DNA from: Thermoanaerobaculia bacterium | Lineage (GTDB): Bacteria > Acidobacteriota > Thermoanaerobaculia > Gp7-AA8 | NCBI GenBank assembly: GCA_035516895.1 | Contig: DATIZY010000017.1 | Coordinates: forward strand, 3,472-67,471 | Length of the DNA stretch: 64,000 bases | Reading direction: 5' to 3' | Shown: positions 1 to 52,781 of the stretch, piece after piece | How the letters are laid out: every line of letters starts with the position of its first letter | Numbering within the stretch: position 1 is the first letter of the stretch | The notes under the pieces: generated by a model | Database searches by the model: none | Seen by the model: only the letters and a program-made list of their open reading frames with translations | What the model was told of the DNA's origin: nothing | Position numbers and translations under genes: made by a program

Positions 1-273
1 TCTTCGACGATCAGAGCTCGGTGGCCTTGTGTCATCGGTTACGGCGGCGTCAAATTCCTGTGTCGCGCTAACTTTCCCGCCATGTTCGCGTCTCAATGTA
101 CAAGATGAGACGGCCCGCCGCGATTCTGATTCTTCTGCTTGTGACGAGCTGCCGCTTTTCCGATTCGGGGAAGCGCCTCGCGGCCGATGCCGTACTCCAA
201 ACGGTGATGCACCTTCAAGCGAGCGCGCCGCTGACCCAGAGCGCAGCGCGCACGCCGGCCGTCCGGGCGCACT

Positions 274-830
274 CACGCGCGTGCCGTCTCATCGCCTCTC
301 CAGAGATTCTGCGACGCGATGCGAAGCGCACGGTTGAACTTTGCCGACGCGTTCTCCCACGCCACGATTTCCGTCAGCTCCACGATCTCGTCCTCGTCGT
401 AGAGCGCGCGAACGCGCGAAAAAAGCTCGTCCGACACATCGCGGCCCGTGGTGCTGATGGCGTCTGCAAATTCCAGGACGGTCCGTTCTTCGGCTGAGAA
501 GAGCGGCGAGGTCGCGTAGTCGTTCAGCGCGAGAAGCTTTTCATCGCTGATCCCGAGCCCGCTGCCGACCGCAGCGTTGATGTCCTGTCAGAATTCGCAG
601 CCGTTCAGAGATGCGACGCGGCGGTTGATCAGCGCCTGCAGCTTCGGATCGATCAGCGCGGAGGCGTCGATGCCGCTCCACATCGCGCGCACGCCGTAGA
701 AGATCGACGGCCGCCGCGCATAGATCAAGTGATTGTTGAGCGGCGCGCCCCATCGTTTTCGCTGCGCTTCGAGCACGGCGCGCACGCGCGGCTCGACGCT
801 GTCCGGATCGACTCCCGAGATTCTGGCCAT
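274..830 (-). CDS. AhpD-like / carboxymuconolactone decarboxylase family protein, candidate selenoprotein: one in-frame TGA (588..590) at the CxxC position, read as Sec to give a ~185-aa protein
   Basis: ORF 588..899(-) ends ...ASLNGCEF-TGA. The same frame continues without a further stop to TGA at 274..276 as QDINAAVGSGLGISDEKLLALNDYATSPLFSAEERTVLEFADAISTTGRDVSDELFSRVRALYDEDEIVELTEIVAWENASAKFNRALRIA..., which is typical of the C-terminal half of the CMD/AhpD family. The TGA replaces the second Cys of the N-G-C-x-(F/Y)-C redox motif. A GGUC-loop hairpin lies 12 nt downstream. Confidence 0.5.
561..575 (-). other. Candidate bacterial SECIS apical hairpin: gcugc-GGUCG-gcagc, 12 nt downstream of the in-frame UGA
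   Basis: Minus-strand RNA reads UGA cag gac auc aac GCUGC GGUCG GCAGC. The spacing and the GGUC loop are the same as the E. coli fdhF SECIS minimal element (UGA, then a ~12-nt spacer, then a stem with a GGUC loop). Confidence 0.4.
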
Positions 831-844
831 GAAAGAATGATCGC

Positions 845-1609
845 ATGCCGGAGCTGCCGGAAGTCGAGATCTACAAACGCTTTTTCGAGCGGCATGCACT
901 CGGACAGACCGTCACACGCGTGCGCGTCCTCGACGCGCGCATCGCCGGCACGCGCAAGCTCTCGCAGCTCGCCGGCCGCGAGTTCCGGCGCGTGCGGCGA
1001 CACGGCAAACACCTCTTCGCCGACGCCGGCGACCTCTGGCTGCACATTCACTTCGGCATGAGCGGCGATCTCGCGTACTACCGCGACGGCGATCCGCCCC
1101 GGTTCGCGCGGCTCATCATCGATTTCGAGGGCGGGGAACATCTCGCGTACGAGGACATGCGCCTCTTCGGCATCGTCGACCTCACGCCTTCGCCCGAGGC
1201 GTATGTTCGAGAGCACGATCTCGGACCGGATCCGCTGGAGATCGATCTGCGCCGCTTCCGCGAGCGCATCGCCGGCCGCCGCGGCCGCATCAAAGCGCTG
1301 CTGCTTTCGCAGAATGTGATCGCCGGCGTCGGCAATCTCTACGCGGACGAGGCGCTGTTTCGGTCGGGCCTCCGGCCGGATCGTCCGTCCGTCCGGCTCA
1401 CCGCTGACGAGGTGAAGACGCTCTTCACGAAGATCCGCGGCGTGTTGCGCGAGACGATCGCGTTCAAATCGCGCGGCGAGACGTATCCCGCGCGCTTTCT
1501 CATCCAGCATCGTGAGGAGGGCGATCGCTGTCCGAAATGCGGCGGGACGATCCGGCGCACGGTTGTTGCAGGTCGGACGACGTACTTTTGCGCGAGGCAT
1601 CAGACGTGA
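845..1609 (+). CDS. Fpg/Nei-family DNA glycosylase/AP lyase (MutM-like)
   Basis: N-terminal MPELPEVE with catalytic Pro2/Glu3, a central helix-two-turn-helix region, and a C-terminal zinc finger CPKCGG...YFCARHQ. 254 aa. Confidence 0.85.
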   Translation: MPELPEVEIYKRFFERHALGQTVTRVRVLDARIAGTRKLSQLAGREFRRVRRHGKHLFADAGDLWLHIHFGMSGDLAYYRDGDPPRFARLIIDFEGGEHLAYEDMRLFGIVDLTPSPEAYVREHDLGPDPLEIDLRRFRERIAGRRGRIKALLLSQNVIAGVGNLYADEALFRSGLRPDRPSVRLTADEVKTLFTKIRGVLRETIAFKSRGETYPARFLIQHREEGDRCPKCGGTIRRTVVAGRTTYFCARHQT

Positions 1610-1614
1610 GCGAC

Positions 1615-2466
1615 GTGACGAGACTCATTGAAAGAATTGGTGATAATAAATCATTACAAAATGCGGCGGAGCCGATCCAGAACGTCGTGCGCGAGGCGCT
1701 GCCGGGCGACGTCAGGAACTTCCTGCACGGCACCTGGCTCGGTCATCCGCTGCATCCCGCGGTCACCAACATTCCGGTCGGCGCCTGGACCGCGGCGCTC
1801 TTCTACGATCTGATCGGCGAAGAGAAGGCGGCGACCTTGGCGATCGGCGTGGGCCTCGCGGGCGCCCTCGCATCGGCCCTCACCGGCCTGACCGACTGGT
1901 CGGAGACCGACGATCGCGCGCGCAGCATCGGACTGCTGCACGGCACGTTGAATGTCGCCGCCACCGCGCTCTACACGGCGTCACTGCTCGCACGCACGAG
2001 CGGACGACCCCGCGGCCGCGGCACCGCTCTCTCGACCCTCGGCTACGCCATCGCGATGGCCTCGGCGTACCTCGGCGGACATCTCGTATTCGCAGAGCAG
2101 GTGGGAGTCGATCACACCGCGACCGCGGACATGAAGAAGCCGGAGACGTTCACGCGCGCGGTCAAGATCGACGATCTGCGCGAGAACAAACCGGCGCGTG
2201 CGCTCGCCGGCGGCGTCGCGGTGCTGCTCGTCAAACGCGGCGACAACATTTTCGCGATCACCGAAACCTGTCCGCACATGGGTGGTCCGCTTTCGGAGGG
2301 AACGATCGCCGGCGACGCGATCGAGTGTCCGTGGCACGGCTCGCAGCTCGCGCTCGACGATGGTCATGTCGTGAACGGCCCGACCGCGTTTCCGGCGCGC
2401 TGCTTCGATGTGCGCCTGCGCGGCGGGTATGTCGAAGTGCGCGCACGGAGCGCGGGCTCTCGGTAG
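1615..2466 (+). CDS. Membrane protein with DUF2231-like N-terminal transmembrane domain and C-terminal Rieske [2Fe-2S] domain
   Basis: C-terminus carries CPHMGGPL...CPWHG, the Rieske CxH...CxxH boxes. N-terminus has several hydrophobic helices (HGTWLGHPLHP motif). The start was taken as GTG just after the fpg stop; GTG at 1606 is an alternative. Confidence 0.65.
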   Translation: MTRLIERIGDNKSLQNAAEPIQNVVREALPGDVRNFLHGTWLGHPLHPAVTNIPVGAWTAALFYDLIGEEKAATLAIGVGLAGALASALTGLTDWSETDDRARSIGLLHGTLNVAATALYTASLLARTSGRPRGRGTALSTLGYAIAMASAYLGGHLVFAEQVGVDHTATADMKKPETFTRAVKIDDLRENKPARALAGGVAVLLVKRGDNIFAITETCPHMGGPLSEGTIAGDAIECPWHGSQLALDDGHVVNGPTAFPARCFDVRLRGGYVEVRARSAGSR

Positions 2467-6877: not shown

Positions 6878-7645
6878 ATGCTAACCTTCGCGCTCGTGTC
6901 TCTCTTCCGCAGCGTGGCGGTCTTCTCGCTCCTGTGGCTGCTGAAAGCGCTGAGCAGGATCTTTTATCGCCCCGACTTCGGCTGGATCGGCCCGACGCCG
7001 CGCGATCCATGGGCGGGCATCCGGCTCGTCGTGTTTCTCAATCACACGAGCCTCTTCGAGCCGGTGTTTGTCTGCGGAGTGCCGAACCGCTTCATCTGGC
7101 GTCTCGCCGCGCATGGCGTCATTCCCGCGGCGGCCAAAACGACCGAGCGCCCGCTCGTCGGCATGGTGTTCAAGTTCGTGGCGCACCACGTCGTTCCGAT
7201 CACGCGACAACGCGATCACACGTGGTTCGCGGTGCTCGACCGCATCGATCCGAAGTCGATGGTGGTCATCGCGCCGGAAGGCCGGATGAAGCGCGAGACG
7301 GGCCTCGACCTGCAGGGCAATCCGATGACCGTGCGCGGCGGCGTGGCCGACATCATGCTGTCGATCGAGCGCGGGCGCATGCTGCTCGCGTACAGCGGCG
7401 GTCTGCATCACGTGCAGGTGCCCGGCCATTTGCCGAACGTGTTCGAGCGGGTGCAGATGCGGATCGAGAACCTCGAGATCGCCGACTACATGGCCGAGCA
7501 GATGGCGAAAGGGGGAGCGGGCGAGTTCAAGAAGAGCGTCATTCGCGATCTCGAGGCGCGGCGCGACCGCTACTGCGTCGACGACCGCGAGAGAACGCTC
7601 GTGAATTCGACCGCCGGCATCGGCTCGCTGAACAGAAATCCCTGA
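6878..7645 (+). CDS. Lysophospholipid/1-acyl-glycerol-3-phosphate acyltransferase-like protein (PlsC family)
   Basis: N-terminal transmembrane helix, an NHTSLFEP motif (the NHxxxxD/E acyltransferase block I) and PEGRM (PEGTR-like block III). Starts within a few nt of the divergent hydrolase start. Confidence 0.55.
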   Translation: MLTFALVSLFRSVAVFSLLWLLKALSRIFYRPDFGWIGPTPRDPWAGIRLVVFLNHTSLFEPVFVCGVPNRFIWRLAAHGVIPAAAKTTERPLVGMVFKFVAHHVVPITRQRDHTWFAVLDRIDPKSMVVIAPEGRMKRETGLDLQGNPMTVRGGVADIMLSIERGRMLLAYSGGLHHVQVPGHLPNVFERVQMRIENLEIADYMAEQMAKGGAGEFKKSVIRDLEARRDRYCVDDRERTLVNSTAGIGSLNRNP

Positions 7646-8319
7646 ATGAATTCGCAGCGGTGTTCGCGCAGAAACGCCAGCTGCTCCTCGTTCTCCACCC
7701 CCTCGGCGATCACTTTGAGGCCGAGCTCGTGCGCGAGATCGAGGATGCTGCGGGTGATGGCGCGCGATCGCTCGGACCCTTCGACGCCTTTGACGAACGT
7801 GCCCGGAATCTTGACTCCGTCGACGTCGAGCGTCAGCAGGTGCGACAGCGACGAATGGCCGGTGCCGAAGTCGTCGAGCCAAAGCTCGGCGCCGAGGGAG
7901 CGGATTTCGTCGCCGACGGAGCGGAGATGTTTCGGATTTCTGATGAACGATGTCTCGGTGATCTCGAGATTGAGCCGCGAGATGCCGCCGAGTTTTTTCA
8001 GCCGCTGCGCGAGGCGGCCCTGCTCGAACTCGCGCGGCGAGAGATTCACGTTGAGCCGGAGTCCGTCCCAGCCCGCCGAATCGCGCAGAGCCTGCTGCAT
8101 CATCCACGAGTCGAGGCGGAACATTTCCGGACCTTCCTCGGCTCCGTGCGCGATGGGGACGCCGCTGCGGATCTCGCCGGTCGGACGGCGCGCGCGCAGC
8201 AGCGTCTCGGCCGCGACGATCGTTCGCGAATCGAGCTCGTGAATGGGCTGATAAAAGAGGACGAGCTGCTTCCGGTTCAGCGCGCGGCGGACGCCCGCTC
8301 GAGGTGCGGTCTTCGACAT
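7570..8319 (-). CDS. Stand-alone EAL-domain protein (c-di-GMP phosphodiesterase-like)
   Basis: Carries the QPIhELdsr, NLSPREF, EITET and DDFGTGHSSLS..L motifs, and the KIPGtFV and EGVEnEEQ motifs typical of EAL domains. The start was taken at the internal MSKTAPRAG; the longer upstream ORF region is Arg-rich and not protein-like. Confidence 0.7.
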   Translation of the reverse strand: MSKTAPRAGVRRALNRKQLVLFYQPIHELDSRTIVAAETLLRARRPTGEIRSGVPIAHGAEEGPEMFRLDSWMMQQALRDSAGWDGLRLNVNLSPREFEQGRLAQRLKKLGGISRLNLEITETSFIRNPKHLRSVGDEIRSLGAELWLDDFGTGHSSLSHLLTLDVDGVKIPGTFVKGVEGSERSRAITRSILDLAHELGLKVIAEGVENEEQLAFLREHRCEFIQGFLFSEPMPAVEFTSVLSRSSTQ

Positions 8320-8349
8320 GTCGCCATCAGCCTCTACAATCGGCGCGCC

Positions 8350-8988
8350 ATGCCGGTGGAGATTCTTCGCGTAGAGTCGCGTCGCGCGGCGCGGCAGCGG
8401 CGGATGCAGAAGGTGCAGCATCTGTTCGCGGCGGCGCTGCTGATCACGACGGCCATGCAGCACGGCCTCCGATCGCCGCTGGCGATCGCCGAAATCGCAG
8501 CCGGCGCGCTGTTGATTGCTGCGTTCGTGCGCGAGCGACTGCGCCACGGCCATCACGGCGGCGTGGCGTGGGTCGAGATCGCGGGCGCGGCGATGACGCT
8601 CGTCGAGGCGGTCGAGCGGACGCGCGGCCGTCATCATCTTTCGTTTGTCGTGCTGTCGTTTCTCGCGCCGGCGGTGCTGCTCGTCTTCGCGATCTTCGAC
8701 GCCCGCATCGCCGAAGCGCGCTACCTCAAAGCGGACGAGGACGGTTTCGAGGTCCGGCTTCGGCTCTTCTTCCGGCGCCGCGTGCGATGGAAAGAGATCC
8801 GCGGATTTCGAGCGACGAGCGACGCGATCGAGCTCGAAGGCGCTCGGAACATCTCGTTGCGCGGCATCGTCGATCGGGAGGCCGCGGTGCAGTGGAGTGT
8901 TGAGCAGTTCCGCAAGCGAGGCGTGCCGGAGCTAGAAGACACGGCGGACCAGGAGCAGCGTCGCATAGGCGAGGCCGGCGATCGCTAG
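8350..8988 (+). CDS. Putative membrane protein with bacterial PH-like (bPH_2/YdbT-like) C-terminal domain
   Basis: In-frame ATG at 8350 followed by three hydrophobic helices, then a DGFEVRLRLFFRRRVRWKEIRGF segment resembling bPH_2. It is the 3' portion of a long, otherwise implausible ORF (6592..8988). Confidence 0.4.
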   Translation: MPVEILRVESRRAARQRRMQKVQHLFAAALLITTAMQHGLRSPLAIAEIAAGALLIAAFVRERLRHGHHGGVAWVEIAGAAMTLVEAVERTRGRHHLSFVVLSFLAPAVLLVFAIFDARIAEARYLKADEDGFEVRLRLFFRRRVRWKEIRGFRATSDAIELEGARNISLRGIVDREAAVQWSVEQFRKRGVPELEDTADQEQRRIGEAGDR

Positions 8989-9678: not shown

Positions 9679-11070
9679 TCATGGACGCGGGGGCAAAACG
9701 ATGGCCCTTTCTTCGCTCGTTTCAATGACTTCCGTCTTATTGCCGATGCCGTGAACTCGCCAGCGGGCCGCCTTCCTGATCCTGCCGCGTGGGAGGAGAT
9801 CGATGTCGGGCCGGACCATCGGGAACGAGGTCTTCGGCGTCTGCGCGGCGAAGAGCACGCTGCCTGTGTCATCGAGAATTTCGAAGACGAAAAACGACGC
9901 GGCGCCCGGCTGAGACTCGTGCCACGAGAACGCGAGCTGACCGGCGAGCGTCACGCCGTCGAACGGCGCGTCGGGGATGATCGTCGGCCCCGTCGGTGCG
10001 GGGCCGAGGAGGATCGCTCCGGGACCGCTGTTCGATGCTGAGGCTGTCGATGCGACCGCGGCCACCGGGCCGCGTGCTGCAGTCAATGAGACAAGCACGT
10101 CGACGGTTGCTTCGGTCGGCGACGTGAACAGCGGCGTGCCGACGATCGTCACGTCTTTGCCGAATGTGATCGTCGTCTCCGATGAAAAGTTCTTGCCGAT
10201 GAGGTGAAGTGTGTATCGCTGGCCGGCCTGCAGCTTCGAGGGAGAGATGACATCGATGCGCGGCCCGATCACCATCTCGGTCGGACGCACCGGCTGCGGC
10301 ACTTCCGGTTGCGGCACGGGCACCGGTTCGGGCTGCGGTGCGGGTGGGGGCGGCGTGATGCGACTGCCAGCCGCTTCGCCGGATGGTTGCGGCTGTGGCT
10401 GCGGCTGCGGCTGTGGAACGGGAGCGGGCTGCGGCTGTGGCTGCGTGCCGGGGAGTTTTCCTGCCGTCGGTTCGCCGGTCGGCTGCGGAACCGGAGTCGG
10501 CTGCGGAACCGGAACAGGCTTTGGCTCTGGAGGAGGTTGCGGCGTCGGAACGGGCGCCGGTTGCGGCTGAGGAACAGGCGTGGGTTGTGGCTGCGGCTGC
10601 GGTTGCGGTTGCGGTTGTGGTTGTGGTTGTGGTTGCGGCTGCGGCTGCGGTTGTGGTTGTGGCTGTGGCTGTGGTTGTGGTTGCGGCTGCGGTTGCGGTT
10701 GTGGCTGCGGTTGCGGCTGTGGTTGTGGCTGCGGCTGCGGGTTCACGGTGAACGCATTCGCAACGCGCACCGGCGTCGGCGCGGCAGCCGTCGCCACGGG
10801 CGTGTAGACGAATGTGTACGCGCTCGTTGGCGCCGTCGGCGAGATCTGAATCGTGAATTGCAGGAACCTGTTCGGATTGCGCGGATTGGAAACGGCGATT
10901 TTGCCCGCTGGTTCGAACGAGATCCCGCCGCCCGGTGGCCACGTCACGTTTGTCGTGATGTCGAGAGTCTCGCCCTGGATGCCGCTGGACGGCGTGAGCG
11001 CGACCTTCGGAAGGGCGACCGACGCCGCGATGAGCAGCGCGCCGAGGGCGACGAAGAAGAGACGCTTCAT
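9679..11070 (-). CDS. Secreted PQ-repeat surface protein: two globular domains joined by a (PQ)n / Pro-rich linker
   Basis: Signal peptide MKRLFFVALGALLIAASVA. About 26 perfect PQ dipeptide repeats flanked by PxP-rich sequence, and a C-terminal beta-rich domain. The start ATG overlaps the stop of the upstream giant gene (ATGA), implying translational coupling. Confidence 0.6.
   Translation of the reverse strand: MKRLFFVALGALLIAASVALPKVALTPSSGIQGETLDITTNVTWPPGGGISFEPAGKIAVSNPRNPNRFLQFTIQISPTAPTSAYTFVYTPVATAAAPTPVRVANAFTVNPQPQPQPQPQPQPQPQPQPQPQPQPQPQPQPQPQPQPQPQPQPQPQPQPQPQPTPVPQPQPAPVPTPQPPPEPKPVPVPQPTPVPQPTGEPTAGKLPGTQPQPQPAPVPQPQPQPQPQPSGEAAGSRITPPPPAPQPEPVPVPQPEVPQPVRPTEMVIGPRIDVISPSKLQAGQRYTLHLIGKNFSSETTITFGKDVTIVGTPLFTSPTEATVDVLVSLTAARGPVAAVASTASASNSGPGAILLGPAPTGPTIIPDAPFDGVTLAGQLAFSWHESQPGAASFFVFEILDDTGSVLFAAQTPKTSFPMVRPDIDLLPRGRIRKAARWRVHGIGNKTEVIETSEERAIVLPPRP
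10584..10741. repeat. Perfect hexanucleotide microsatellite (GGYTGY)n of ~26 units, encoding (PQ)26 on the minus strand
   Basis: Directly visible as ggttgtggctgcggctgcggttgcggttgcggttgtggttgtgg... Degenerate copies extend upstream to ~10300. Confidence 0.85.
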
Positions 11071-14000
11071 TGGCTCACCGCGGACGTCGTCGAAGGATTG
11101 TTCGTCTTGGTTGCGTTGATGCTCGCCGGCACGGCGACCACCGTCGTTCCGTTCATCGCCTGGCCGCTGCTCGCGCCCCAGTTGAACGACATGGTCCCGA
11201 CGTATTGGTGAATGAACTTCGGCGGCGGGATCTGCCCTGTGGAGCTGCTGCGGTTCGCGTCGGCTGAGAACTGCAGGGACAAGTGCTGCGTGAGGCGCTG
11301 CGGCGTCCATGTGACGAGCGCCTGGTAATCCTCGCTGCGCGACTCCAGGTTCGTCAGGTCATTTTTCGAACGGCTGAAATTGACGCGGGGCTGCAGCATG
11401 ATTCCCCAGTTTGGGAGCGTCCAGCTCGGCTGCAGTGACGCGAGATACTGATCCGTGGTCCCGACGGCGGAGCTGCCCGCCGTACGCGTGCCCGACAGCA
11501 CAGCCGACAGATTGAGGTACGGCGTCGGAGTGCCGCCGAAGGTCAGCGTCGCCGCGCTCGTGGTCGAGTCGGAGATCGGTGTGATGCGATCGTGAAGTTT
11601 CTGCACCGTCATGGTCTGCGACAAATTGAAGATCCCGATCGCCTCGGTCACCGTGCCGTTGGCTCCCGATTGGGTGCGATCGAGATCCGGCAGTCCGTAG
11701 CTGGGATTGCCCGAGCCGCGATCGGCCGTCCAGTTCCCGCCTAACGCGAGCGTCGTTCGCTGGCCGATGGAGGTCGTGACCGCCAGGACTCCGCCATTTT
11801 CGCGATTGCGCGGAAGGATCGCGCCCGACGAGTTGCCGTCGCGGAGCGTTCGCAGCTGCAGCGAGAGCGACGTGCGATTGATGACCTTGGTCAGCGAGAG
11901 ATTCGCGCCCGTTCGATCGGGAACGCCGCCGGGTGTGAGTGCGCGGTTCGCCGGATTGACGTAGTCCGCCTCGGTTCGCCGCAGATTGAGCACATATGCG
12001 AACGTTCCCCAGTTGCCGGTCGCGTCGAGCCGCAGCGCGCTGCCCTCGTGTTTCGGTCCGACGGTGGTGGGGTTCGGGTCGAAGCCGCCGTGCGATCCTT
12101 CGAAGATCAGCGTCAGCTTCGGATCGAAGATGTACTTCGCGAAGACGCCGAACGCTTTGCCGACTCCGCCGGCGGAGTTCGGGCCGGCGTCGTCCGTGAC
12201 GCGGAAACCCATCAGCCGGAAGTCCCACTTGTCGTTCGGCTCGGTCTGCAGGGCCGCGGCGCGGATGATCGTCTTCGGACCGAAGTCTCCCGCGAGAACG
12301 CCGGCCGGCTTTGTGCCGAAGGTCTCATATCCCGAGGCGATCATGTGGAAGAGGTGGAGGCGGCCTTCGACGCCGCCGCGCGCGACGCCTGTCGCGAGCA
12401 GCTCCGACTGATCGAGAAAATCGGGCGCGGCGTAACCGATCTTCGCTTCCGGCTGCACGAGGCCCTGCTGCCGCGTGAAATCAGTCAGCCAGTTGCGGCT
12501 CTCCTGCACGGTCTTGTTCGGGTCGGCGAGATCGTGGCGCACCGACATGTCGCCGGTGACTTTCGCTCCCTTGGCGTTCTCGGCGAGGTCGGTTTGCGCG
12601 GAGAACTGCGTGCGCGCGGCATTCGGCTGTCCCGGCGCATCGCCGCCGGCGGCGGTGATCGTGCCGTTCGGCGTCACCGCCCAATCTTTTTGCAGCGATG
12701 GCGCGGCAGGCTGCGCCGCTTCGGGAGCGACCTCCACGTCGAAGCTCCACGTCGTGACCGCGCCCGCGAGCGACAGCCGGACCGAGTGCGTGCCGTTTGC
12801 GAGCGGCAGGAGCGAGTCGTAGTTGATCGAAGCCGCGTCGATTTTCGAGACATTCGTGACGTCGGTCTGATCGAGAGTCATCGCGACGTCCTGCGCTTTC
12901 ACCGTGCCGCTCCATGTCGCGCTGATGTGCGGCTGGTTCGTTGCGACTTTCGATCCGTCCGCCGGCTGCTGATTCGTGACGGCGGGCTTCTGCTGCACGA
13001 GAGCGATCGGCTGCTTCGCGGGCGCGCGCCCGACGTTCGCCGTCGGCGATGCGCCTAACACAACGCCGCCGGGCCCGATCGCCGTCACACGGACGGACGT
13101 GCCGCCGACGCCCGGCGGAATCGCGAAGTCGCTGGCTGCGGTGAGCGCCGAATAGACGACGTTGCCGGCGGCATCGAGCACGTCCACGCGGTACAGCAGC
13201 CCGCTGACGCCGCCGCGCCAGCGCACGTGCCGCTGCTGCACGGTCGCGGTGAGATCGACGTGCTGCGGCACGATCGCGAAGCGCTGCCACTCCGTCGGCT
13301 CGCTTTCGGTTTCGCCGGCGAACACGGCACGGACGCGCCAGCGATGAATGCCCGGCCCGATCTCCTGCAGCGTCCGGGCGCTCGGCTTCCATTGCGCGTC
13401 CGACAGCCGGAAGCGGCGCGGCAGGAGATCGTTGTCGATCTCCACGACGTAGCCGCTGCTGTTCGGAACGAGCGACCAGCGGAACAGCGGCGACGCGCTT
13501 CCGATCACCATGCCGTCGCGCGGCGCGAGCAGCGTCAGGCGCGAGACGCTGTTCGGCGCCATCAGCACGTGCAGCGAAGGTGCGGCGGCGAATTGCGGCG
13601 ACTCGATCTGCAGCTCGAGCGTGTGCGCGCCCTCGTACGAGATCGGCAGCGGCAGATGCGTGCGGACTTCGGCCGGATATCCGCCGCCGACGTTCACCGT
13701 GAATCGATCGAACGGCACGCCGTCGAACTTCCAGACGCCGATGATCGTGCCCGTTCCGGTCGTGGCCAGCAGGCCGCGGGGAAAGACGTTTTGCGACGGC
13801 GCGATCATCGTTCCTTCCGCCGGGAAAACGATCGCCGCGGTCGTGACGCCGAGGGGCGCGGCGATCGAGCCGCGCGGGTAGACGAGAAGCGTCGCGGTTG
13901 CGCTGCCGCCGTCGGGATTCGTCAGCATCAGCGTCGTCGCTCCCGGCGGCGCCTCGGCGATGACGCTCATCGTCACATCGGCGATTTCCGGCGTGATGAC

Positions 14001-16664
14001 GTTGACATTCTCGATGCGGACGCCGGGGTTGACGACCGACACGCGTGCACCCGGCTCGAAGAAGCGGCCTAACAAACGCTCGACGATCGAGCGCTCGCCC
14101 GTCGCGACCGCCGGCGGAACGACGGTGGTAATCACGGGACGCGGAGGCAGAATGCTGAGTGCGACGTCGACGAAATGCGTCGGATCGCTGTTGCCGATGA
14201 AGCGGAGCGTGGCCGGACCCACCGTCGCGTTCGCGGCGATGTCGATCTCGACCTGCTGCGTCTGCCCTGGCGCAATCGTGAACGATGGCGGATTCAGCGA
14301 CACGCCCGGAGGCGGAGTCGCCGTGATCGCGACGCCGCCGGTGAACGCGTTCGATCCGACGACGCCGATCGTCACATTGCCGCTGCTGCCGGCCGCGATC
14401 GAAGTCGCGGATGGCGCGGCGGTGAGCGCGTAATCGGGGCGGCCGCTGACGTTGATGTTCAGCGTCGCGGTCCTTGGGCCGCTGACACCGGCTGCGGTTC
14501 CGGAGAACAACACGCTGCCGGAACTCACGAGTGTGGAGGTGCCGATCGAGATCGTGACGTTGAGCGGAGTGCCCGGAGTCAGCGTGAATGCCGATGGAGT
14601 CACCGAAACGCCCGCAGTCGGGGACGTTGTGACGCTGACCGGACCCGAAAAACCGTTGAGGCCCGTCGCCAGCACGCTCACCTGCATGCTCGCCGATTGC
14701 GCGAGCGAGATCATCGACGGCGAGACCGAGAGTGTGAAGTCGGGCGACCCGGTGATCGTGATGAGGACCGGCGCGGTGTGCGTGCCGACGCCGGTTGCGG
14801 TGCCCGTGAACACGCCGCTGAATGTCGCGGGAGCCGCGCCCGGCGCGATCTTCACCGTGACCGTTTGCGATCCGCCGGCCGGTATCGTGAAGGCCGAAGG
14901 CGTGAAGGTGACGTCGGCGCTGCCCGGCGACGTGACGGACACGGAACCGGTGAATCCGTTCAGCGGTTGCGTCGAGACGGTGAGCGTCGACGTTCCGCCG
15001 GAGGCGATCGAAAGGGAGGAGGGATCAGCGGTGAGAGTGAAGTCGGGGCCGGCGACGACGTTCACCGCGATCGGAGCGGTGCGCGAGCCGGTGATGCCGG
15101 GCGCGGTTCCGGTGAACACGCCGTTGTGCAGCGCCGGCGTCGCGTTGGTCGCGGCGCTGATCGTCACGGTTTGCGAGGCGCCGGGCAGCAGAGAGAACGT
15201 CTGCGGCGAGAACGCGATGCCTGCCAGCGCCGGCGCGTTGACCGTGATGCTGCCGGCGAATCCGTTCACTCCCGCGGCGGAGACGTTCACCGTCGTGCTC
15301 TGCCCCGGAGCAATCGTGACGCTCGGCGGCGCGACGGTGAGTCGGAAATCGGGCGCAGCGACGACTGTGATCGTGACGTTCTGCGTCTTCGTCGTGCCGG
15401 ATGCCGGCGTGAAGGTGAACGTCGAGGTGTACGTTCCCGGCGCGACGTTGCTCGCGGCCTGAGCGACGAACGTCGCCGGCGCCGCGCTGCTCGTCGGAGT
15501 GAACGTGATTCCCGGCGGAGCGGCGGGCGTGACGGTGACCGTGCTGGTGAAGCACGCGTTCGGCGTGATCGACGCGTTGATCGATTGTCCTCCGCCGCCG
15601 GCGGTCAGCGTGATCGCGTTCGGGATGGCGGCCGGCGTGTAGTCGGGCGCGGTGACGGTGATCGAGAGGTTGACGTTCTTGTTGATGTTCGCGGCGGGAT
15701 CGGAAACGTTCAGGACCGCGATGTACGTCCCCGGCGCGGCAGTCCCCGCGTCGACGTTGAACGGAAGCGACTGGTTCGGCGGCATCGCCGCGGCGGCGGG
15801 AAGCGCACTGATGTTGACCCCCGCTGGAATCGAGGTGAACGCGACGCGCGGTGTGCCGCTGTAGCCGTTGACCGGAGCGAGATTGATCGCATCGGAGGCC
15901 GGCGCGCCGCCCTGACAAACGTTGATCGCAGGATTGCTGAAGATCGCCGAGATGTCGGGCTGCTGCACGATGATCGTCAGCGCGTTCGGAAATACCTTCT
16001 GAACTCCAAGCTCGTCGACGCCAGTGAGCGTGCCGCTGTACGCTCCCGGCGTCGCCCCTGCGCCTAACGAGAACGTGAACGTCAGCGGGTTGTACGGTTG
16101 TGGCGTCGTCTGCGCCGGAGGCACGTTGATGAACGACGGGAATCCGCTGAACGAGTACGTGAGCTGTTTCGCGCCGAAGCCGGGATCGGGTTTCGTCGTC
16201 ACGGTCACCGACTGCGCCGTCCCGCCGATGACCAGCGTCGTCGGGTTCGGAGCGACGCTCGCGGTGTACGACGGAGTGTTGACGACGAGTGTGACGGTCG
16301 TCGTGCCCGCGCCGAACGCATCGCGGAGAGTGATGGGATACGTGCCTGGGGTCGTGCCGGCGCCGACCGCGAATCGAAACGATGTCGACGCCGATGTCGA
16401 GTTGAGCGTGTACGGATAGGTCACCGGCGACGGCAGCGTGTTGACGCCGGCCGGCAGTCCGCCGACGACCACGGTTCCGGTGGCATTGACGCTGCCGGTC
16501 GCATAGGTGAGCGTGACTGCGACGGCCGGAGTGGTCTGCGTCGGAAGGGCGCTGACCATCGCGGGGACGGCATTCACGATCGCGTACGCAATCGGGACAG
16601 CGCAGAGAATCAGACCTGTCCAGAATGCGCGCCGAAAAACCACTCCACCGGGTCGAATGTCCAT
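11067..16664 (-). CDS. Giant (1865 aa) secreted cell-surface protein with >=7 tandem Ig-like repeats and a C-terminal beta-rich domain
   Basis: Signal/anchor at N-terminus. Repeated ~100-aa units begin PDF(T/R)L(T/S)... or PDY... and contain G(F/S)(T/A/S)GS..V and GVFTGTA blocks. The C-terminal ~530 aa is Ser/Thr/Asn/Gly-rich with alternating hydrophobic residues, possibly a beta-barrel or beta-helix. Confidence 0.8.
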   Translation of the reverse strand: MDIRPGGVVFRRAFWTGLILCAVPIAYAIVNAVPAMVSALPTQTTPAVAVTLTYATGSVNATGTVVVGGLPAGVNTLPSPVTYPYTLNSTSASTSFRFAVGAGTTPGTYPITLRDAFGAGTTTVTLVVNTPSYTASVAPNPTTLVIGGTAQSVTVTTKPDPGFGAKQLTYSFSGFPSFINVPPAQTTPQPYNPLTFTFSLGAGATPGAYSGTLTGVDELGVQKVFPNALTIIVQQPDISAIFSNPAINVCQGGAPASDAINLAPVNGYSGTPRVAFTSIPAGVNISALPAAAAMPPNQSLPFNVDAGTAAPGTYIAVLNVSDPAANINKNVNLSITVTAPDYTPAAIPNAITLTAGGGGQSINASITPNACFTSTVTVTPAAPPGITFTPTSSAAPATFVAQAASNVAPGTYTSTFTFTPASGTTKTQNVTITVVAAPDFRLTVAPPSVTIAPGQSTTVNVSAAGVNGFAGSITVNAPALAGIAFSPQTFSLLPGASQTVTISAATNATPALHNGVFTGTAPGITGSRTAPIAVNVVAGPDFTLTADPSSLSIASGGTSTLTVSTQPLNGFTGSVSVTSPGSADVTFTPSAFTIPAGGSQTVTVKIAPGAAPATFSGVFTGTATGVGTHTAPVLITITGSPDFTLSVSPSMISLAQSASMQVSVLATGLNGFSGPVSVTTSPTAGVSVTPSAFTLTPGTPLNVTISIGTSTLVSSGSVLFSGTAAGVSGPRTATLNINVSGRPDYALTAAPSATSIAAGSSGNVTIGVVGSNAFTGGVAITATPPPGVSLNPPSFTIAPGQTQQVEIDIAANATVGPATLRFIGNSDPTHFVDVALSILPPRPVITTVVPPAVATGERSIVERLLGRFFEPGARVSVVNPGVRIENVNVITPEIADVTMSVIAEAPPGATTLMLTNPDGGSATATLLVYPRGSIAAPLGVTTAAIVFPAEGTMIAPSQNVFPRGLLATTGTGTIIGVWKFDGVPFDRFTVNVGGGYPAEVRTHLPLPISYEGAHTLELQIESPQFAAAPSLHVLMAPNSVSRLTLLAPRDGMVIGSASPLFRWSLVPNSSGYVVEIDNDLLPRRFRLSDAQWKPSARTLQEIGPGIHRWRVRAVFAGETESEPTEWQRFAIVPQHVDLTATVQQRHVRWRGGVSGLLYRVDVLDAAGNVVYSALTAASDFAIPPGVGGTSVRVTAIGPGGVVLGASPTANVGRAPAKQPIALVQQKPAVTNQQPADGSKVATNQPHISATWSGTVKAQDVAMTLDQTDVTNVSKIDAASINYDSLLPLANGTHSVRLSLAGAVTTWSFDVEVAPEAAQPAAPSLQKDWAVTPNGTITAAGGDAPGQPNAARTQFSAQTDLAENAKGAKVTGDMSVRHDLADPNKTVQESRNWLTDFTRQQGLVQPEAKIGYAAPDFLDQSELLATGVARGGVEGRLHLFHMIASGYETFGTKPAGVLAGDFGPKTIIRAAALQTEPNDKWDFRLMGFRVTDDAGPNSAGGVGKAFGVFAKYIFDPKLTLIFEGSHGGFDPNPTTVGPKHEGSALRLDATGNWGTFAYVLNLRRTEADYVNPANRALTPGGVPDRTGANLSLTKVINRTSLSLQLRTLRDGNSSGAILPRNRENGGVLAVTTSIGQRTTLALGGNWTADRGSGNPSYGLPDLDRTQSGANGTVTEAIGIFNLSQTMTVQKLHDRITPISDSTTSAATLTFGGTPTPYLNLSAVLSGTRTAGSSAVGTTDQYLASLQPSWTLPNWGIMLQPRVNFSRSKNDLTNLESRSEDYQALVTWTPQRLTQHLSLQFSADANRSSSTGQIPPPKFIHQYVGTMSFNWGASSGQAMNGTTVVAVPASINATKTNNPSTTSAVSQ
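14160..16280. repeat. Tandem ~290-300-bp coding repeats (Ig-like domain units) inside the giant surface-protein gene
   Basis: Protein-level periodicity of ~97-105 aa (PDFTLTADPSSLSIASGG..., PDFTLSVSPSMISLAQSAS..., PDYALTAAPSATSIAAG...) maps to roughly this DNA interval. Confidence 0.6.
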
Positions 16665-48968: not shown

Positions 48969-51900
48969 TCAGCCGGCGCTGACGTCGTCCGGCGCTGCTG
49001 TCAGCAGCTCGATGAACTTCTCCGCCGGAACGGGCGCCTTGATGAGGTAGCCCTGCATCTGATCGCAGCCGAACTTCTTGAGGAACGACGATTGCTCGGT
49101 GAACTCCACGCCTTCCGCGATGACTTTGAGGCGCAGGCTGTGCGCCATTGCGATGATCGCGGTGACGATCGCCGCGGTGTCGGGATCGTGGGTGATGTCG
49201 CGGACGAACGACTGATCGATCTTCAGCGTGTCGATCGGGAATCGTTTGAGGTAGCTGAGCGACGAATGTCCCGTGCCGAAGTCGTCGAGCGAGATCCGAA
49301 CGCCGAGCTTCTTGAGCTCGTAAAGCGTCCGCACGCTCGTCTCGGGGCTCTGCATCGCGCTGCTCTCGGTGATCTCCAGCTCGAGCAGCCGCGGCGGCAG
49401 TCCGGTTTCCTGCAGGATTTCGCGCACGCTCTGCACGAGGTCGGGCTGCTGCAGTTGGACGACCGAAAGATTGACCGCGAGCGAGAGCGCGCGATGGCCG
49501 GCGTCGTGCCATGCCTTGGCCTGCGCACACGCCGCACGCAACGCCCAGCCGCCGATCGGAATCATCACTCCGATCGCCTCGGCGAGCGGAATGAAGACGC
49601 TGGGGGGGATCATCCCGAGCGTCGGATGGTTCCAGCGGAGCAGCGCTTCCATTCCGCTGATGCGGCCCGTGCGGAAATCGAAGATCGGCTGGTAGTAGAC
49701 CGCGAGCTCGTTGTTCGCGAGCGCTTTGCGCAGCCCATGCTCGAGCGCGATGCGCTGCAGCGCTTTCGCGTTGATGAACGCGTTGAAGAGCTGGTAGTTG
49801 TCGCGGCCCTGCTCCTTCGCCTGATACATCGCCGTGTCGGCGTTCTTGATCAGCGTCTCGGCGTCGAACCCGTCGTCGGGATAGAGGCTGATGCCGATCG
49901 ACGTCGTCATGAAGAATTCGCGTCCTTCGATCTGGAACGGATAGCGCACGGCGTCGATGATCTTCTGCGCGACGAGCGCCGCGTCTTCACCCTGGAACAG
50001 GTGCGGCAGGAGGATCGTGAATTCGTCGCCGCCGAGGCGGGCGACGGTGTCGCTTTCGCGGACGCAGGACTGCACGCGCGCGGAGACCGCCTGCAGCAGC
50101 TGATCGCCGATGTTGTGGCCGAGCGAGTCGTTGATGACTTTGAACCGGTCGAGATCGAGGAAGAGCACCGCGAGCTTCGACCGCTCGCGCTGCGCGTGTG
50201 AGATCGCCACGGTCAGGCGGTCTTTGAACAGCAGCCGGTTCGGCAGCCCGGTCAGCGCATCGTGATACGCCAGGTGCTTGATCTGCTCCTCGGCGTAGGT
50301 GCGCTCGGTGATGTCGCGCGCGACGCAGACGAAGCCGCCGCCCTCGATCGCGCTGATCGAGATCTCCTGCGGGAACGTGAGGCCGTCGTGACGCAGGCCG
50401 GGCGCTTCGCCGCGCCACTTTCCGCGCTGCTTCACGATCGGCAGAATCGTCGAGGTGAAACGCTCGTACGTCGACGGCTCGTAGAGCGTGTGCAGCGAGA
50501 GGCCGATCATCTGCCTCGGATCGGCATAGCCGTACAGCTTCGCGAGCGCGTCGTTGACGACGGTGAGCTCGAGACGATGGTTGACGATGCCGATGCCGTC
50601 CATCGACGCGGTCATCGCCGCCGATTGCTTCTGCAGTGTTTCTTCCGCGCGCTTCCGCTCGGTGACGTCGTTCGCGACGTGGAGGAAGCCGGTGAGCCAG
50701 CCGTCGTCGCGGCGCAGCGAGGTGACCGACAGCAGCACCGTGATCGCGGTCGCGTCGCTCTTGACGTACGTCCACTCGCGCTCCTCGATGCCTTCGCGAT
50801 CGGCGCGATGCGCCACGATGTCGAATCCGCTGAGGCGATATCCGAACTCGCTCTGCAGCCGGTTCGCGTGGTCCTCGAGCTCTTCGGGCCGGTGCAAGTC
50901 GATGACCGAGCGCCGGCCGATGACGTCGGAGGCTTTGTAGCCGAGCATCCTCTCCGCGCCGGAGTTGAACACGGTGATGATGCCTTCGGCGTCGGTGGCG
51001 ATGATCGAGACGCCGGTCGCCGCATCGAGCACCGCTTTGCGCTGCGCATTCGCCGACGCGAGCTGCTGCTCGGCCATCCTGCGCTCGGTGATGTCGTAGA
51101 CGAAGCTCTCGAACAGCGGCGGCTCGTCTTCATCGTGCACCATGTGCGCATTGATCTGCACCCACAGCGGAGTCCCGTTCTTCTTGCGCCACAGGACCTG
51201 TGTTTCGGCCACTTCGCCGCTGGCTGCATGCGCGATGAGATCCGCGTGACGCTCTTCCGGATTGAGGTAGACCTCGGCGAGGTTCATCCGCAGCAGCTCG
51301 TCGGGCGAGTCGTAACCCAGCATGCGGGCCAGCGCGTTGTTCGCGGTGGTCAGGCGTCCGTCGACGGTCGCCTGGAAAATGCCGACGGATGCGAAGTTGA
51401 AAATGTTCCGGTACTTCTCTTCCGAAGCGGCGAGCGCTTTCTCGGCCTGACGCCGCTCGGTAACGTCGTGAATGATCGAGTAGAGGTAGCGATGCGGCCC
51501 GATCTCGACCGGGCCGGAATGCACCTCGACGTCGCGGATCGCGCCGTTCGCGACGCGGTGCCGGAACTCGAACACGGAGCGGTCCTGCCGTGCGGCGTTC
51601 GCCATTTCTCTGCGGATGTGTTCCTGTTCGAGCAGATTGATGTCCCAGATTTTCATCGAGCGCAGGCGCTCGACGCTCCATCCGTAGTACTCGGAGGCCG
51701 CGACGTTCGCGTCGATGATCGCGCCGCTGTCAGGATCGAGGATCAGCTGCACGGCGCGGTTGTTCTCGAACATCTGCCGGTAACGGCGCTCGTTTTCGCG
51801 CAGCGCGGTTTCCTGGCGCTTCTGATCGATCGCCGATGCGACCTGCTGCGCGACGAATACGAGGATCTCCTTGTCCCGCGTTGTCAGCCGTTTGTCGGCC

Positions 51901-52781
51901 TCGTACGTCTGTACGCCGATCACGCCCCACGTCCGCTCGCCGGTCCTGAGCGGCGCGCCGAGCCAGTCCATCGAGCGATGTCCGACAAGCTCGATCTCGC
52001 CTTCGGCGCACAGCCGGTCGAAGACCTCCGGTGTGGCGAGCAGCGGTTTGCCGGTCCGCAGGACGAACGCCGTGCATCCCCGGCCGGGCGGCTCGCCCTC
52101 GGGCGCCGGATCGTAGGCGTCGACGAAGTATGGATAGCTGAGGATGTTGCGCGCCGCGTCGTACTCCGCGATGTAGAAGTTGCTCGCCTCCATCAGCGTC
52201 TGGATGACGGCGTGGATCTCGGGATAAAACTCGGCGAGATCGCTCGTCTCGCGCGCCATCTGGGCGATGCGGAAGAGCGCCGCCTGCAGCCCCTCGACGC
52301 GCCGCGATTCGGTGACGTCGCGGAAGTGCCACGCGCGGCCGGCGCATTTGCCGTCCGCGATCACCGGCACCGAGCCTCGCATCAGCGTGCGGCCGTCTTT
52401 GAGCGGAATCGGATCGCCCGTGCGGATCTCGTTCGGATGTTTGTAGAGGTAGGTGACCTCGTCGATGAAGCTGTTCCAGTCGGCGACCCTTTGCGCCGCG
52501 TACTGGAGCAGATGCTCGTCATCTGCGCTCGCCGCCACGTTTTCCGGAATGCCCCAGATCTCGAGAAATCTGCGGTTGTACGACAGCACCTTGCCGTCGG
52601 GATCGACGACCAGCACGCCGTCGAGCATCGCCTCCTGCTGCGCCTTGAGGACCGCCACCGTCGTTCGAGGCGAGCGCAGCCCTGCCGCGCGCAGGGCGCG
52701 GAACCAGCGCGCAAAGTCGCGGCGCGCTTTCGCCAGCCGCGACGAGCGCGGACGAGAGTACTCGGGCAGATGGAGGCTCAT
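48969..52781 (-). CDS. Multidomain sensor: PAS/GAF repeats, GGDEF diguanylate cyclase, EAL phosphodiesterase
   Basis: Several PAS-like blocks, a GAF-like region, RLGGDEFTILL (the GGDEF motif), and an EAL domain with ELEITESSAM / DDFGTGHSSLSYL / QGYLIKAP. Confidence 0.85.
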   Translation of the reverse strand: MSLHLPEYSRPRSSRLAKARRDFARWFRALRAAGLRSPRTTVAVLKAQQEAMLDGVLVVDPDGKVLSYNRRFLEIWGIPENVAASADDEHLLQYAAQRVADWNSFIDEVTYLYKHPNEIRTGDPIPLKDGRTLMRGSVPVIADGKCAGRAWHFRDVTESRRVEGLQAALFRIAQMARETSDLAEFYPEIHAVIQTLMEASNFYIAEYDAARNILSYPYFVDAYDPAPEGEPPGRGCTAFVLRTGKPLLATPEVFDRLCAEGEIELVGHRSMDWLGAPLRTGERTWGVIGVQTYEADKRLTTRDKEILVFVAQQVASAIDQKRQETALRENERRYRQMFENNRAVQLILDPDSGAIIDANVAASEYYGWSVERLRSMKIWDINLLEQEHIRREMANAARQDRSVFEFRHRVANGAIRDVEVHSGPVEIGPHRYLYSIIHDVTERRQAEKALAASEEKYRNIFNFASVGIFQATVDGRLTTANNALARMLGYDSPDELLRMNLAEVYLNPEERHADLIAHAASGEVAETQVLWRKKNGTPLWVQINAHMVHDEDEPPLFESFVYDITERRMAEQQLASANAQRKAVLDAATGVSIIATDAEGIITVFNSGAERMLGYKASDVIGRRSVIDLHRPEELEDHANRLQSEFGYRLSGFDIVAHRADREGIEEREWTYVKSDATAITVLLSVTSLRRDDGWLTGFLHVANDVTERKRAEETLQKQSAAMTASMDGIGIVNHRLELTVVNDALAKLYGYADPRQMIGLSLHTLYEPSTYERFTSTILPIVKQRGKWRGEAPGLRHDGLTFPQEISISAIEGGGFVCVARDITERTYAEEQIKHLAYHDALTGLPNRLLFKDRLTVAISHAQRERSKLAVLFLDLDRFKVINDSLGHNIGDQLLQAVSARVQSCVRESDTVARLGGDEFTILLPHLFQGEDAALVAQKIIDAVRYPFQIEGREFFMTTSIGISLYPDDGFDAETLIKNADTAMYQAKEQGRDNYQLFNAFINAKALQRIALEHGLRKALANNELAVYYQPIFDFRTGRISGMEALLRWNHPTLGMIPPSVFIPLAEAIGVMIPIGGWALRAACAQAKAWHDAGHRALSLAVNLSVVQLQQPDLVQSVREILQETGLPPRLLELEITESSAMQSPETSVRTLYELKKLGVRISLDDFGTGHSSLSYLKRFPIDTLKIDQSFVRDITHDPDTAAIVTAIIAMAHSLRLKVIAEGVEFTEQSSFLKKFGCDQMQGYLIKAPVPAEKFIELLTAAPDDVSAG

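Follow-up and report, generated by a model that had tools for sequence, protein, structure and literature searches.

The question raised by the locus described here is whether a UGA codon in the middle of a minus-strand gene of the CMD/AhpD superfamily ends that gene or is read as selenocysteine (Sec). The gene lies near the start of a stretch of 64,000 nucleotides (64 kb, hereafter the window) on a contig of a Thermoanaerobaculia bacterium, a member of the Acidobacteriota. From comparative sequence evidence it appears very probable that positions 276..830 of the minus strand form a single intact gene that encodes a thiol/selenol oxidoreductase of 185 residues with the CMD/AhpD fold, belonging to the family NF053654, in which the UGA would be read as Sec. 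An earlier note on this DNA had described an open reading frame (ORF) that stops at TGA 588..590, at the second Cys of an NGC-x-F motif, and continues in the same frame for 104 codons; translation bears this out, and only its lower bound of 274 had to be moved by two bases. The coding sequence comprises 185 sense codons from the ATG at 830-828, counting the single internal TGA (590-588) as codon 81, and its frame ends at a true TGA stop at 273..275 (-), UGA being used twice in one gene, once as the predicted Sec codon and once as the terminator (275-273). In translation the internal TGA stands between RRVASLNGCEF and QDINAAVGS (...INRRVASLNGCEF-TGA-QDINAAVGSGLG...), where it is predicted to supply the second redox position of a C78-E-F-U81 (CxxU) motif; the first, resolving position is the Cys78 codon at 597..599 (-), as placed by translation and alignment. 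The N-terminus MARI or MARV is common to the orthologues. In the 64 kb scanned, this is the only site with a TGA between two coding-like stretches that is not antisense to another gene; the scan yielded no further selenoprotein gene in the window, the two other TGA candidates being antisense to large ORFs.

Relatives were collected at the level of proteins and of genomes. A search of about 5.8 billion proteins gave 145 relatives, of which the best 120 were classified, and a scan with one genome per species found a relative in at least 548 genomes, the best 80 loci being analysed; the alignments thus hold 81 sequences, namely the window gene and its 80 best orthologues. TGA occupies the position of codon 81 in 80 of these 80 orthologues, whose loci span the Acidobacteriota (Thermoanaerobaculia, Blastocatellia/Pyrinomonadaceae and Bryobacteraceae), Chloroflexota, Methylomirabilota/Rokubacteria and Rubrobacter, with the isolates Ktedonobacter racemifer DSM 44963, Dictyobacter aurantiacus and Ktedonosporobacter rubrisoli among the Chloroflexota carriers. 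A single internal stop is present in each of the 81 sequences, the 104 codons downstream of it are stop-free in all, and the Cys78 column is invariant (TGC in 72, TGT in 9). Differences at codon positions 1, 2 and 3 of the downstream half amount to 0.19, 0.13 and 0.52, and both halves of the gene show a coding substitution pattern, with an amino-acid identity of 0.76 in the downstream half versus 0.71 in the upstream half. The TGA column aligns with the second Cys of NGCAFC in the structure 2gmy of the Protein Data Bank (PDB), and the Cys homologues of the gene align at the TGA as well.

These observations bear directly on the view that the locus is a pseudogene, in which the second Cys codon was turned into a stop by a nonsense mutation, or by an error of sequencing, and an 80-residue stub is left. 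It is indeed an 80-aa ORF, and nothing beyond it, that automatic gene callers annotate at this place (L096, L097, L098), and the machinery for Sec insertion was not found in the window. Three independent assemblies (ENA ERZ27256514, JGI 3300032892 and Logan SRR8881010), however, contain the window gene again, differing by 1-2 nt and keeping the TGA, so that neither a sequencing error nor a private nonsense mutation can account for the codon. Since the TGA is shared by all 80 orthologues across four phyla, and since the downstream 104 codons are stop-free, carry the coding pattern and are better conserved than the upstream half, the pseudogene is excluded, and we assign it a negligible probability. 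The earlier note, which had judged Sec recoding likelier than a pseudogene, had named a sense codon in close relatives, which would make the stop a strain-specific nonsense mutation, and a TGC or TGT on resequencing as outcomes that would speak against recoding; the orthologues of the four phyla and the three assemblies have TGA throughout.

The same codon explains much of the disorder among database entries. Of the 120 best protein hits, 73 are C-terminal halves that start just past the TGA and 5 end at NGCxF, while 24 are 'full-length' JGI calls with Trp at the site; the one such entry that was traced to DNA (L085) has TGA as its codon. Cys occupies the site in a few hits (P0013, P0024, P0007, P0025 and P0033), and Ser in a single one (P0035) that was not traceable to DNA.

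An element that would direct Sec insertion, a bacterial selenocysteine insertion sequence (SECIS), is predicted as a minihelix at 560..576 (-) from the consensus fold, the comparison with E. coli fdhF and the synonymous-site entropy described below. The hairpin has 6 bp, the strand C576-G575-C574-U573-G572-C571 and the strand G565-C564-A563-G562-C561-G560 enclosing the loop G570 G569 U568 C567 G566 (GGUCG). It begins 11-12 nt past the TGA, covers +15..+31 from the U of the UGA, and overlaps the codons N85-A-A-V-G-S-G91. It belongs to the minimum-free-energy fold and reaches -11.7 kcal/mol alone, confirming the hairpin with a GGUCG loop that had been proposed some 12 nt past the UGA. The z-score of the fold of a 71-nt segment is -0.27, so that single-sequence statistics are not significant. 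In the window, which has 65% GC, a comparable hairpin (5 or more Watson-Crick pairs, GU in the loop, spacer of 10-13 nt) is found past 0.4% of the TGA triplets and past 0.7% of positions overall. The hairpin alone is only moderately unusual, its significance comes from conservation, and the argument for a SECIS therefore rests on comparative data.

Across the 81 sequences the RNAalifold consensus is the same helix. Its five core pairs (+16..+20 with +26..+30) are formed in 80-81 of the 81 and the outer +15/+31 pair in 64. Apart from one mismatch and one U-A pair that becomes U-G, the core pairs vary only where G-C turns into G-U. The loop residues G22 and U23 are invariant in 81/81. The clade of the window has the loop GGUCG; most other sequences have C-GUG-G there, able to close as a triloop, and a C-G-closed GUG or GUC triloop is present in 64/81 relatives. 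Constraint is also visible at synonymous sites: the normalised synonymous entropy of codons 86-90 is 0.25, lower than in any other of 111 five-codon segments, and the median for the gene is 0.75. Ala86 is encoded by GCU in 80/81 sequences, although GCU is the rarest Ala codon (10%) elsewhere in these genes, and Gly89 uses only GGC or GGU and Ser90 only AGC or AGU, whereas the nearby Gly93 and Ser95 use all synonymous codons.

Direct comparison with the fdhF SECIS of E. coli (from MG1655) places the two minihelices at the same +15..+31 with an 11-nt spacer, and an apical G-U is common to both (GGUC at +22..25 in fdhF, GGUCG at +21..25 in the window). The fdhF-like position and loop claimed in the earlier note thus hold, and the strongest synonymous constraint in the gene coincides with them. 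Relative to fdhF, the window hairpin has no bulged U, a loop of 5 nt that is one longer, the G-U one position earlier and no lower stem around the UGA, and its binding by SelB is predicted by likeness. A G in the small apical loop is a published criterion for the bacterial SECIS (PMC1088965), and the window hairpin carries one.

A number of observations weigh against Sec insertion at this codon and call for caution. The 81 sequences contain no double compensatory changes, the stem being nearly invariant, so support for the helix comes from synonymous-site suppression and G-U wobbles, and Rfam gave no relevant match, neither for the whole window at the gathering threshold nor for 480-660 at E up to 10. 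The stem is moreover kept in 5/5 of the Cys-form relatives that were read (L083, L084, L094, L099 and L100), and it is therefore not exclusive to UGA-bearing genes and not diagnostic alone. No selA, selB or selD was detected in the 64-kb window by tblastn with E. coli SelA, SelB and SelD, the window being a small sample of the genome and uninformative for the whole; an extra 9 kb beyond the window start (L096) adds no Sec machinery gene, and ARAGORN found no tRNA-Sec in the window, the 80 related loci or L096, and no tRNA at all in the window. Sec insertion is also a prediction for every member of the family.

The Cys forms deserve a closer look. They were considered as a negative control for the hairpin and set aside as non-discriminating, since all five keep the stem. 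Their coordinates are 2163-2777 in L083, 258-800 in L084, the 654-677 region in L094, 418-972 in L099 and 183-737 in L100, and the stem GCUGC...GCAGC is kept even in Cys forms of the sister clade at about 50% identity. In L100 the loop G-U is lost, and His stands at +4 after the Cys, where Sec forms have Asn. Distant CMD paralogues with NGCEFCQDIKRA are without the stem. A stem in Cys forms fits a remnant SECIS after Sec-to-Cys conversion, yet leaves room for another constraint on the sequence; remnant SECIS-like structures after such conversions have been documented (PMC1794560). As even Cys forms at an identity of about 50% retain the stem, the hairpin might serve a function beyond the recruitment of SelB.

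What would remain, if the codon is translated, is the possibility that site-specific read-through or reassignment of UGA places one of the standard amino acids (Trp, Cys, Gly or Arg) at the site. The database entries with W at the site could be cited for it, being alternative-code calls by JGI, as could the predicted status of Sec throughout the family. We consider it very unlikely. TGA terminates 17 of the 38 predicted ORFs of the window as well as the gene itself, and a single credible in-frame TGA was found in the window, so that the code is standard and the recoding site-specific. In a CxxC enzyme this site holds a redox Cys, the natural variants have Cys there and not Trp, and a Trp in place of the catalytic Cys would inactivate the enzyme. 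The geometry of the hairpin is that of a SECIS, the G-U of its loop is invariant, and selA lies nearby in four relatives. A gene split at the UGA, in which residues 1-80 and a restarted C-terminal piece assemble into the CMD fold and the hairpin serves translational coupling or another role, appears extremely unlikely to us. The persistence of the stem in Cys forms would suit such a gene, and the 73 C-terminal halves in the databases were called from a GTG or ATG just past the TGA. In the window, however, Val88 is GUC, which is not a start, and the first in-frame ATG, GTG or TTG past the TGA is at 437 (codon 132); the split is contradicted because no start codon is available between the TGA and codon 132. 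Val88 is GUC or GUU in 23/81 sequences. A split would furthermore drop the second redox residue and leave no CxxC or CxxU, though the Cys forms show that this position matters.

Decoding of the codon as Sec therefore remains the preferred reading, and some support for it comes from gene content in relatives. In four Pyrinomonadaceae genomes the orthologue has selA (TIGR00474, 547 bits, cutoff 268) at a distance of 2-3 kb, at 9126-10235 in L003, 12726-14162 in L021, 13121-14230 in L037 and 9258-10076 in L024. It is convergent with and downstream of the selenoprotein orthologue, with a histidine kinase gene in between in L021, and neither selB nor selD lies adjacent in these four genomes. Weak GTPase-type matches to SelB in L054 and L058 (tblastn) were not counted. 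Acidobacteria and Chloroflexi that decode Sec have been reported (PMC1794560). The source organism of the window very likely has the selenocysteine trait. As a separate observation, 28-32 tRNA genes are densely clustered 5-8 kb upstream of the selenoprotein orthologue in five Acidobacteriota/Pyrinomonadaceae loci (L027 1813-4819, L031 2325-5479, L046 1859-4825, L069 2871-5754 and L071 1967-5069). Their order is almost constant and they cover most anticodon families, but none of them is a tRNA-Sec.

Family membership could be settled closely. Scanned against NCBIfam (release 20.0, June 2026) with Cys in place of the TGA, as also for Pfam CMD, the protein matches the equivalog NF053654.1 'GroundWater_YciW', a YciW-related (seleno)protein, at 315.3 bits versus a cutoff of 310 (E=1e-94). 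The match runs end to end, residues 1-178 lying on profile positions 1-178 of 179, and nothing substantive distinguishes the window protein from the family, its score being just above the cutoff. The second redox position of the family motif NGCxF-[U/C]-QD is TGA here and Cys in P0013, P0024 and P0007. Pfam CMD (PF02627) is matched at 40 bits (cutoff 23, E=4e-10), whereas the cutoffs of TIGR01926 (peroxid_rel; 23.6 versus 81.8 bits, E=3.6e-5) and TIGR00778 (ahpD_dom; 15.9 versus 27.8 bits) are not reached. Judged by these profiles, the protein is to be placed in the YciW-related family and not with AhpD proper. The earlier assignment to an established family of AhpD-like selenoproteins is accordingly upheld for the CMD fold and the existence of a curated (seleno)protein family, and needs correction in that the protein is YciW-related, lies below both AhpD-type cutoffs and has Asn for His at +4.

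A profile search of the PDB returned CMD-family structures, namely 2gmy, 2ijc/2o4d/7xw1, Bmp8 (6ohi) and AhpD of D. radiodurans (6k40). An AlphaFold2 model was made for the natural Cys form P0013, which is 65% identical to the window protein. This model has a predicted local distance difference test score (pLDDT) of 91, is all-helical, places the CxxC at the N-terminus of helix 86-98, and superposes on Bmp8, 2pfx, 6k40 and 2oyo with template modelling (TM) scores of 0.7-0.8; on the strength of the model, the selenoprotein family is predicted to have the AhpD/CMD fold.

In AhpD the second Cys of the CxxC (Cys133) is the nucleophile and Cys130 resolves. For the window gene we propose that UGA codon 81 would be decoded by SelB-GTP-Sec-tRNA(Sec), recruited by the mRNA hairpin CGCUGC-GGUCG-GCAGCG that lies 11-12 nt downstream inside the coding sequence (N-A-A-V-G-S). 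In the product, C78-x-x-U81 would form a redox centre at the start of a helix. By analogy with AhpD, Sec81 would take the place of the attacking Cys and Cys78 would resolve the intermediate to a selenenylsulfide, which a reductant would then reduce again. The fourth residue after the second redox position is a nearly invariant Asn (Asn85), where CxxC homologues have His (CVDMH in 2gmy), and a selenol, deprotonated at neutral pH, would not need an activating His. The substrate could be a peroxide, a peroxiredoxin, or another disulfide or electrophile. Insertion of Sec itself at codon 81 is what we infer from sequence comparison.

A divergent Fpg/Nei DNA glycosylase gene (845..1609, +; Pfam Fapy_DNA_glyco, H2TH and zf-FPG) has its start codon 14 bp from that of the selenoprotein gene (831-844), and is followed by a gene for a membrane protein with DUF2231 and Rieske [2Fe-2S] domains (1606..2466, +; identified by Pfam and a gene call in L096), which overlaps the Fpg/Nei stop by 4 nt and is kept with Fpg in 8 loci. 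The divergent pairing noticed before is thus real. The divergent arrangement adjoins the selenoprotein gene in 12 of the 80 loci, all of Thermoanaerobaculia type (ten Thermoanaerobaculia metagenome-assembled genomes (MAGs), L001 from Acidobacteria gp7 and L068 from Candidatus Gilichinskyi gelida), which points to an origin of the window in the Thermoanaerobaculia. The theme of oxidative damage that had been read into the pairing is a clade-level association, not a property of the family and no evidence about function. It is conceivable, if unlikely, that the selenoprotein, Fpg/Nei and the translationally coupled DUF2231-Rieske protein form a functional module in the Thermoanaerobaculia-type clade; if true, this would link a reductase that uses Sec with an iron-sulfur protein of the membrane and with the repair of oxidised bases, a new role for a CMD-family selenoprotein. 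The promoter and terminator scan found no sigma-70-like site or terminator in 1-1800, and promoters must lie inside neighbouring coding regions, or else the mRNAs are leaderless.

No neighbour is conserved universally, the largest neighbour cluster comprising 14 of the 81 loci. A Pyridox_ox_2 gene (PNPOx-like flavoprotein) follows the selenoprotein gene on the same strand in L044 (9522-10331) and 13 other Blastocatellia/Pyrinomonadaceae loci, and a MOSC-domain gene precedes it in 7 loci (9184-9813 in L071, and 6 others). The redox neighbourhood of the Blastocatellia/Pyrinomonadaceae differs from that in the window, and the neighbours in Ktedonobacteria differ again. The window itself is ordinary chromosome, with genes for AlaRS, FtsK, methylmalonyl-CoA mutase, 2-oxoglutarate dehydrogenase E1 and GGDEF/EAL signalling proteins. 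An ORF of 1865 aa at 11067-16664 (-), with a third-position GC content (GC3) of 0.84 and marginal Pfam matches (Fn3-like, ASH), may encode a large secreted or surface protein. The cyclic-di-GMP genes are likewise ordinary and encode a 1270-aa GAF-PAS-GGDEF-EAL protein (48969-52781, -) and an EAL-domain protein (7570-8637, -).

The find is not new as such. AhpD-like CxxU selenoproteins (COG2128/YciW) were recognised in the Sargasso Sea survey of 2005 (PMC1088965), 'AhpD-like 1' appeared in the survey of the Global Ocean Sampling expedition (GOS) of 2008 (PMC2398784), and AhpD-like selenoproteins are listed in reviews (PMC9312934, PMC13188914), the more recent of which assigns TIGR01926 to the classical marine AhpD-like selenoprotein (2026; PMC13188914). 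CxxU proteins of this kind have thus been known since 2005, and the exact subfamily is already curated in NCBIfam as a (seleno)protein. We found no paper describing the NF053654 family itself; the prefix 'GroundWater' suggests that it originated in the 2026 selenoprotein survey of groundwater MAGs cited in PMC13188914. The family being catalogued, the gene represents no new kind of biology but a correct and ordinary find, whose value lies in the repair of annotation. With stubs of 80 aa in three assemblies, half-length proteins as 73 of the 120 database hits and 'W' residues from the wrong code, the gene is split or truncated, and as a result of these miscalls a widespread redox enzyme of soil and groundwater bacteria is systematically mis-represented. 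Relatives in at least 548 species genomes, mostly from aerobic soil phyla, make it a useful marker of selenium use, in particular for the Acidobacteriota and Chloroflexota of soil and groundwater.

Among the known systems close to the window family is the marine AhpD-like selenoprotein family. Both belong to the CMD/AhpD superfamily and are assigned to YciW in COG, both place Sec (predicted, in the window family) second in a CxxU, and both have a hairpin of SECIS type just downstream whose loop contains a G. The family as published is largely marine, whereas the carriers of the window family are Acidobacteriota, Chloroflexota, Methylomirabilota and Rubrobacter of soil and groundwater, and the window protein falls below the cutoff of TIGR01926; the two are therefore related but different subfamilies. 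The CxxC proteins of the AhpD/CMD type (1gu9, 6k40, 7xw1/2ijc of P. aeruginosa and Atu0492 of A. tumefaciens, 2gmy) resemble the predicted fold of the window family in being all-helical and in placing the redox pair at the start of a helix, with M. tuberculosis AhpD (1gu9) showing a weak structural likeness (TM 0.47, E=0.37). In contrast to the CxxC-x3-H of AhpD (NGCAFCVDMH in 2gmy), the window family has a nearly invariant Asn instead of the His, and no gene for an AhpC partner lies near the window selenoprotein gene. The best structural match is the debrominase Bmp8 (6ohi/6ohj; Foldseek E=1e-7, TM 0.74-0.80), which carries out reductive dehalogenation with a Cys pair. By sequence, too, it ranks with the best PDB matches (E=3e-15), at an identity of about 20-22%. 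No halogenation genes lie near the window gene, and Bmp8 serves as a reminder that CMD proteins with a CxxC can have substrates other than peroxides.

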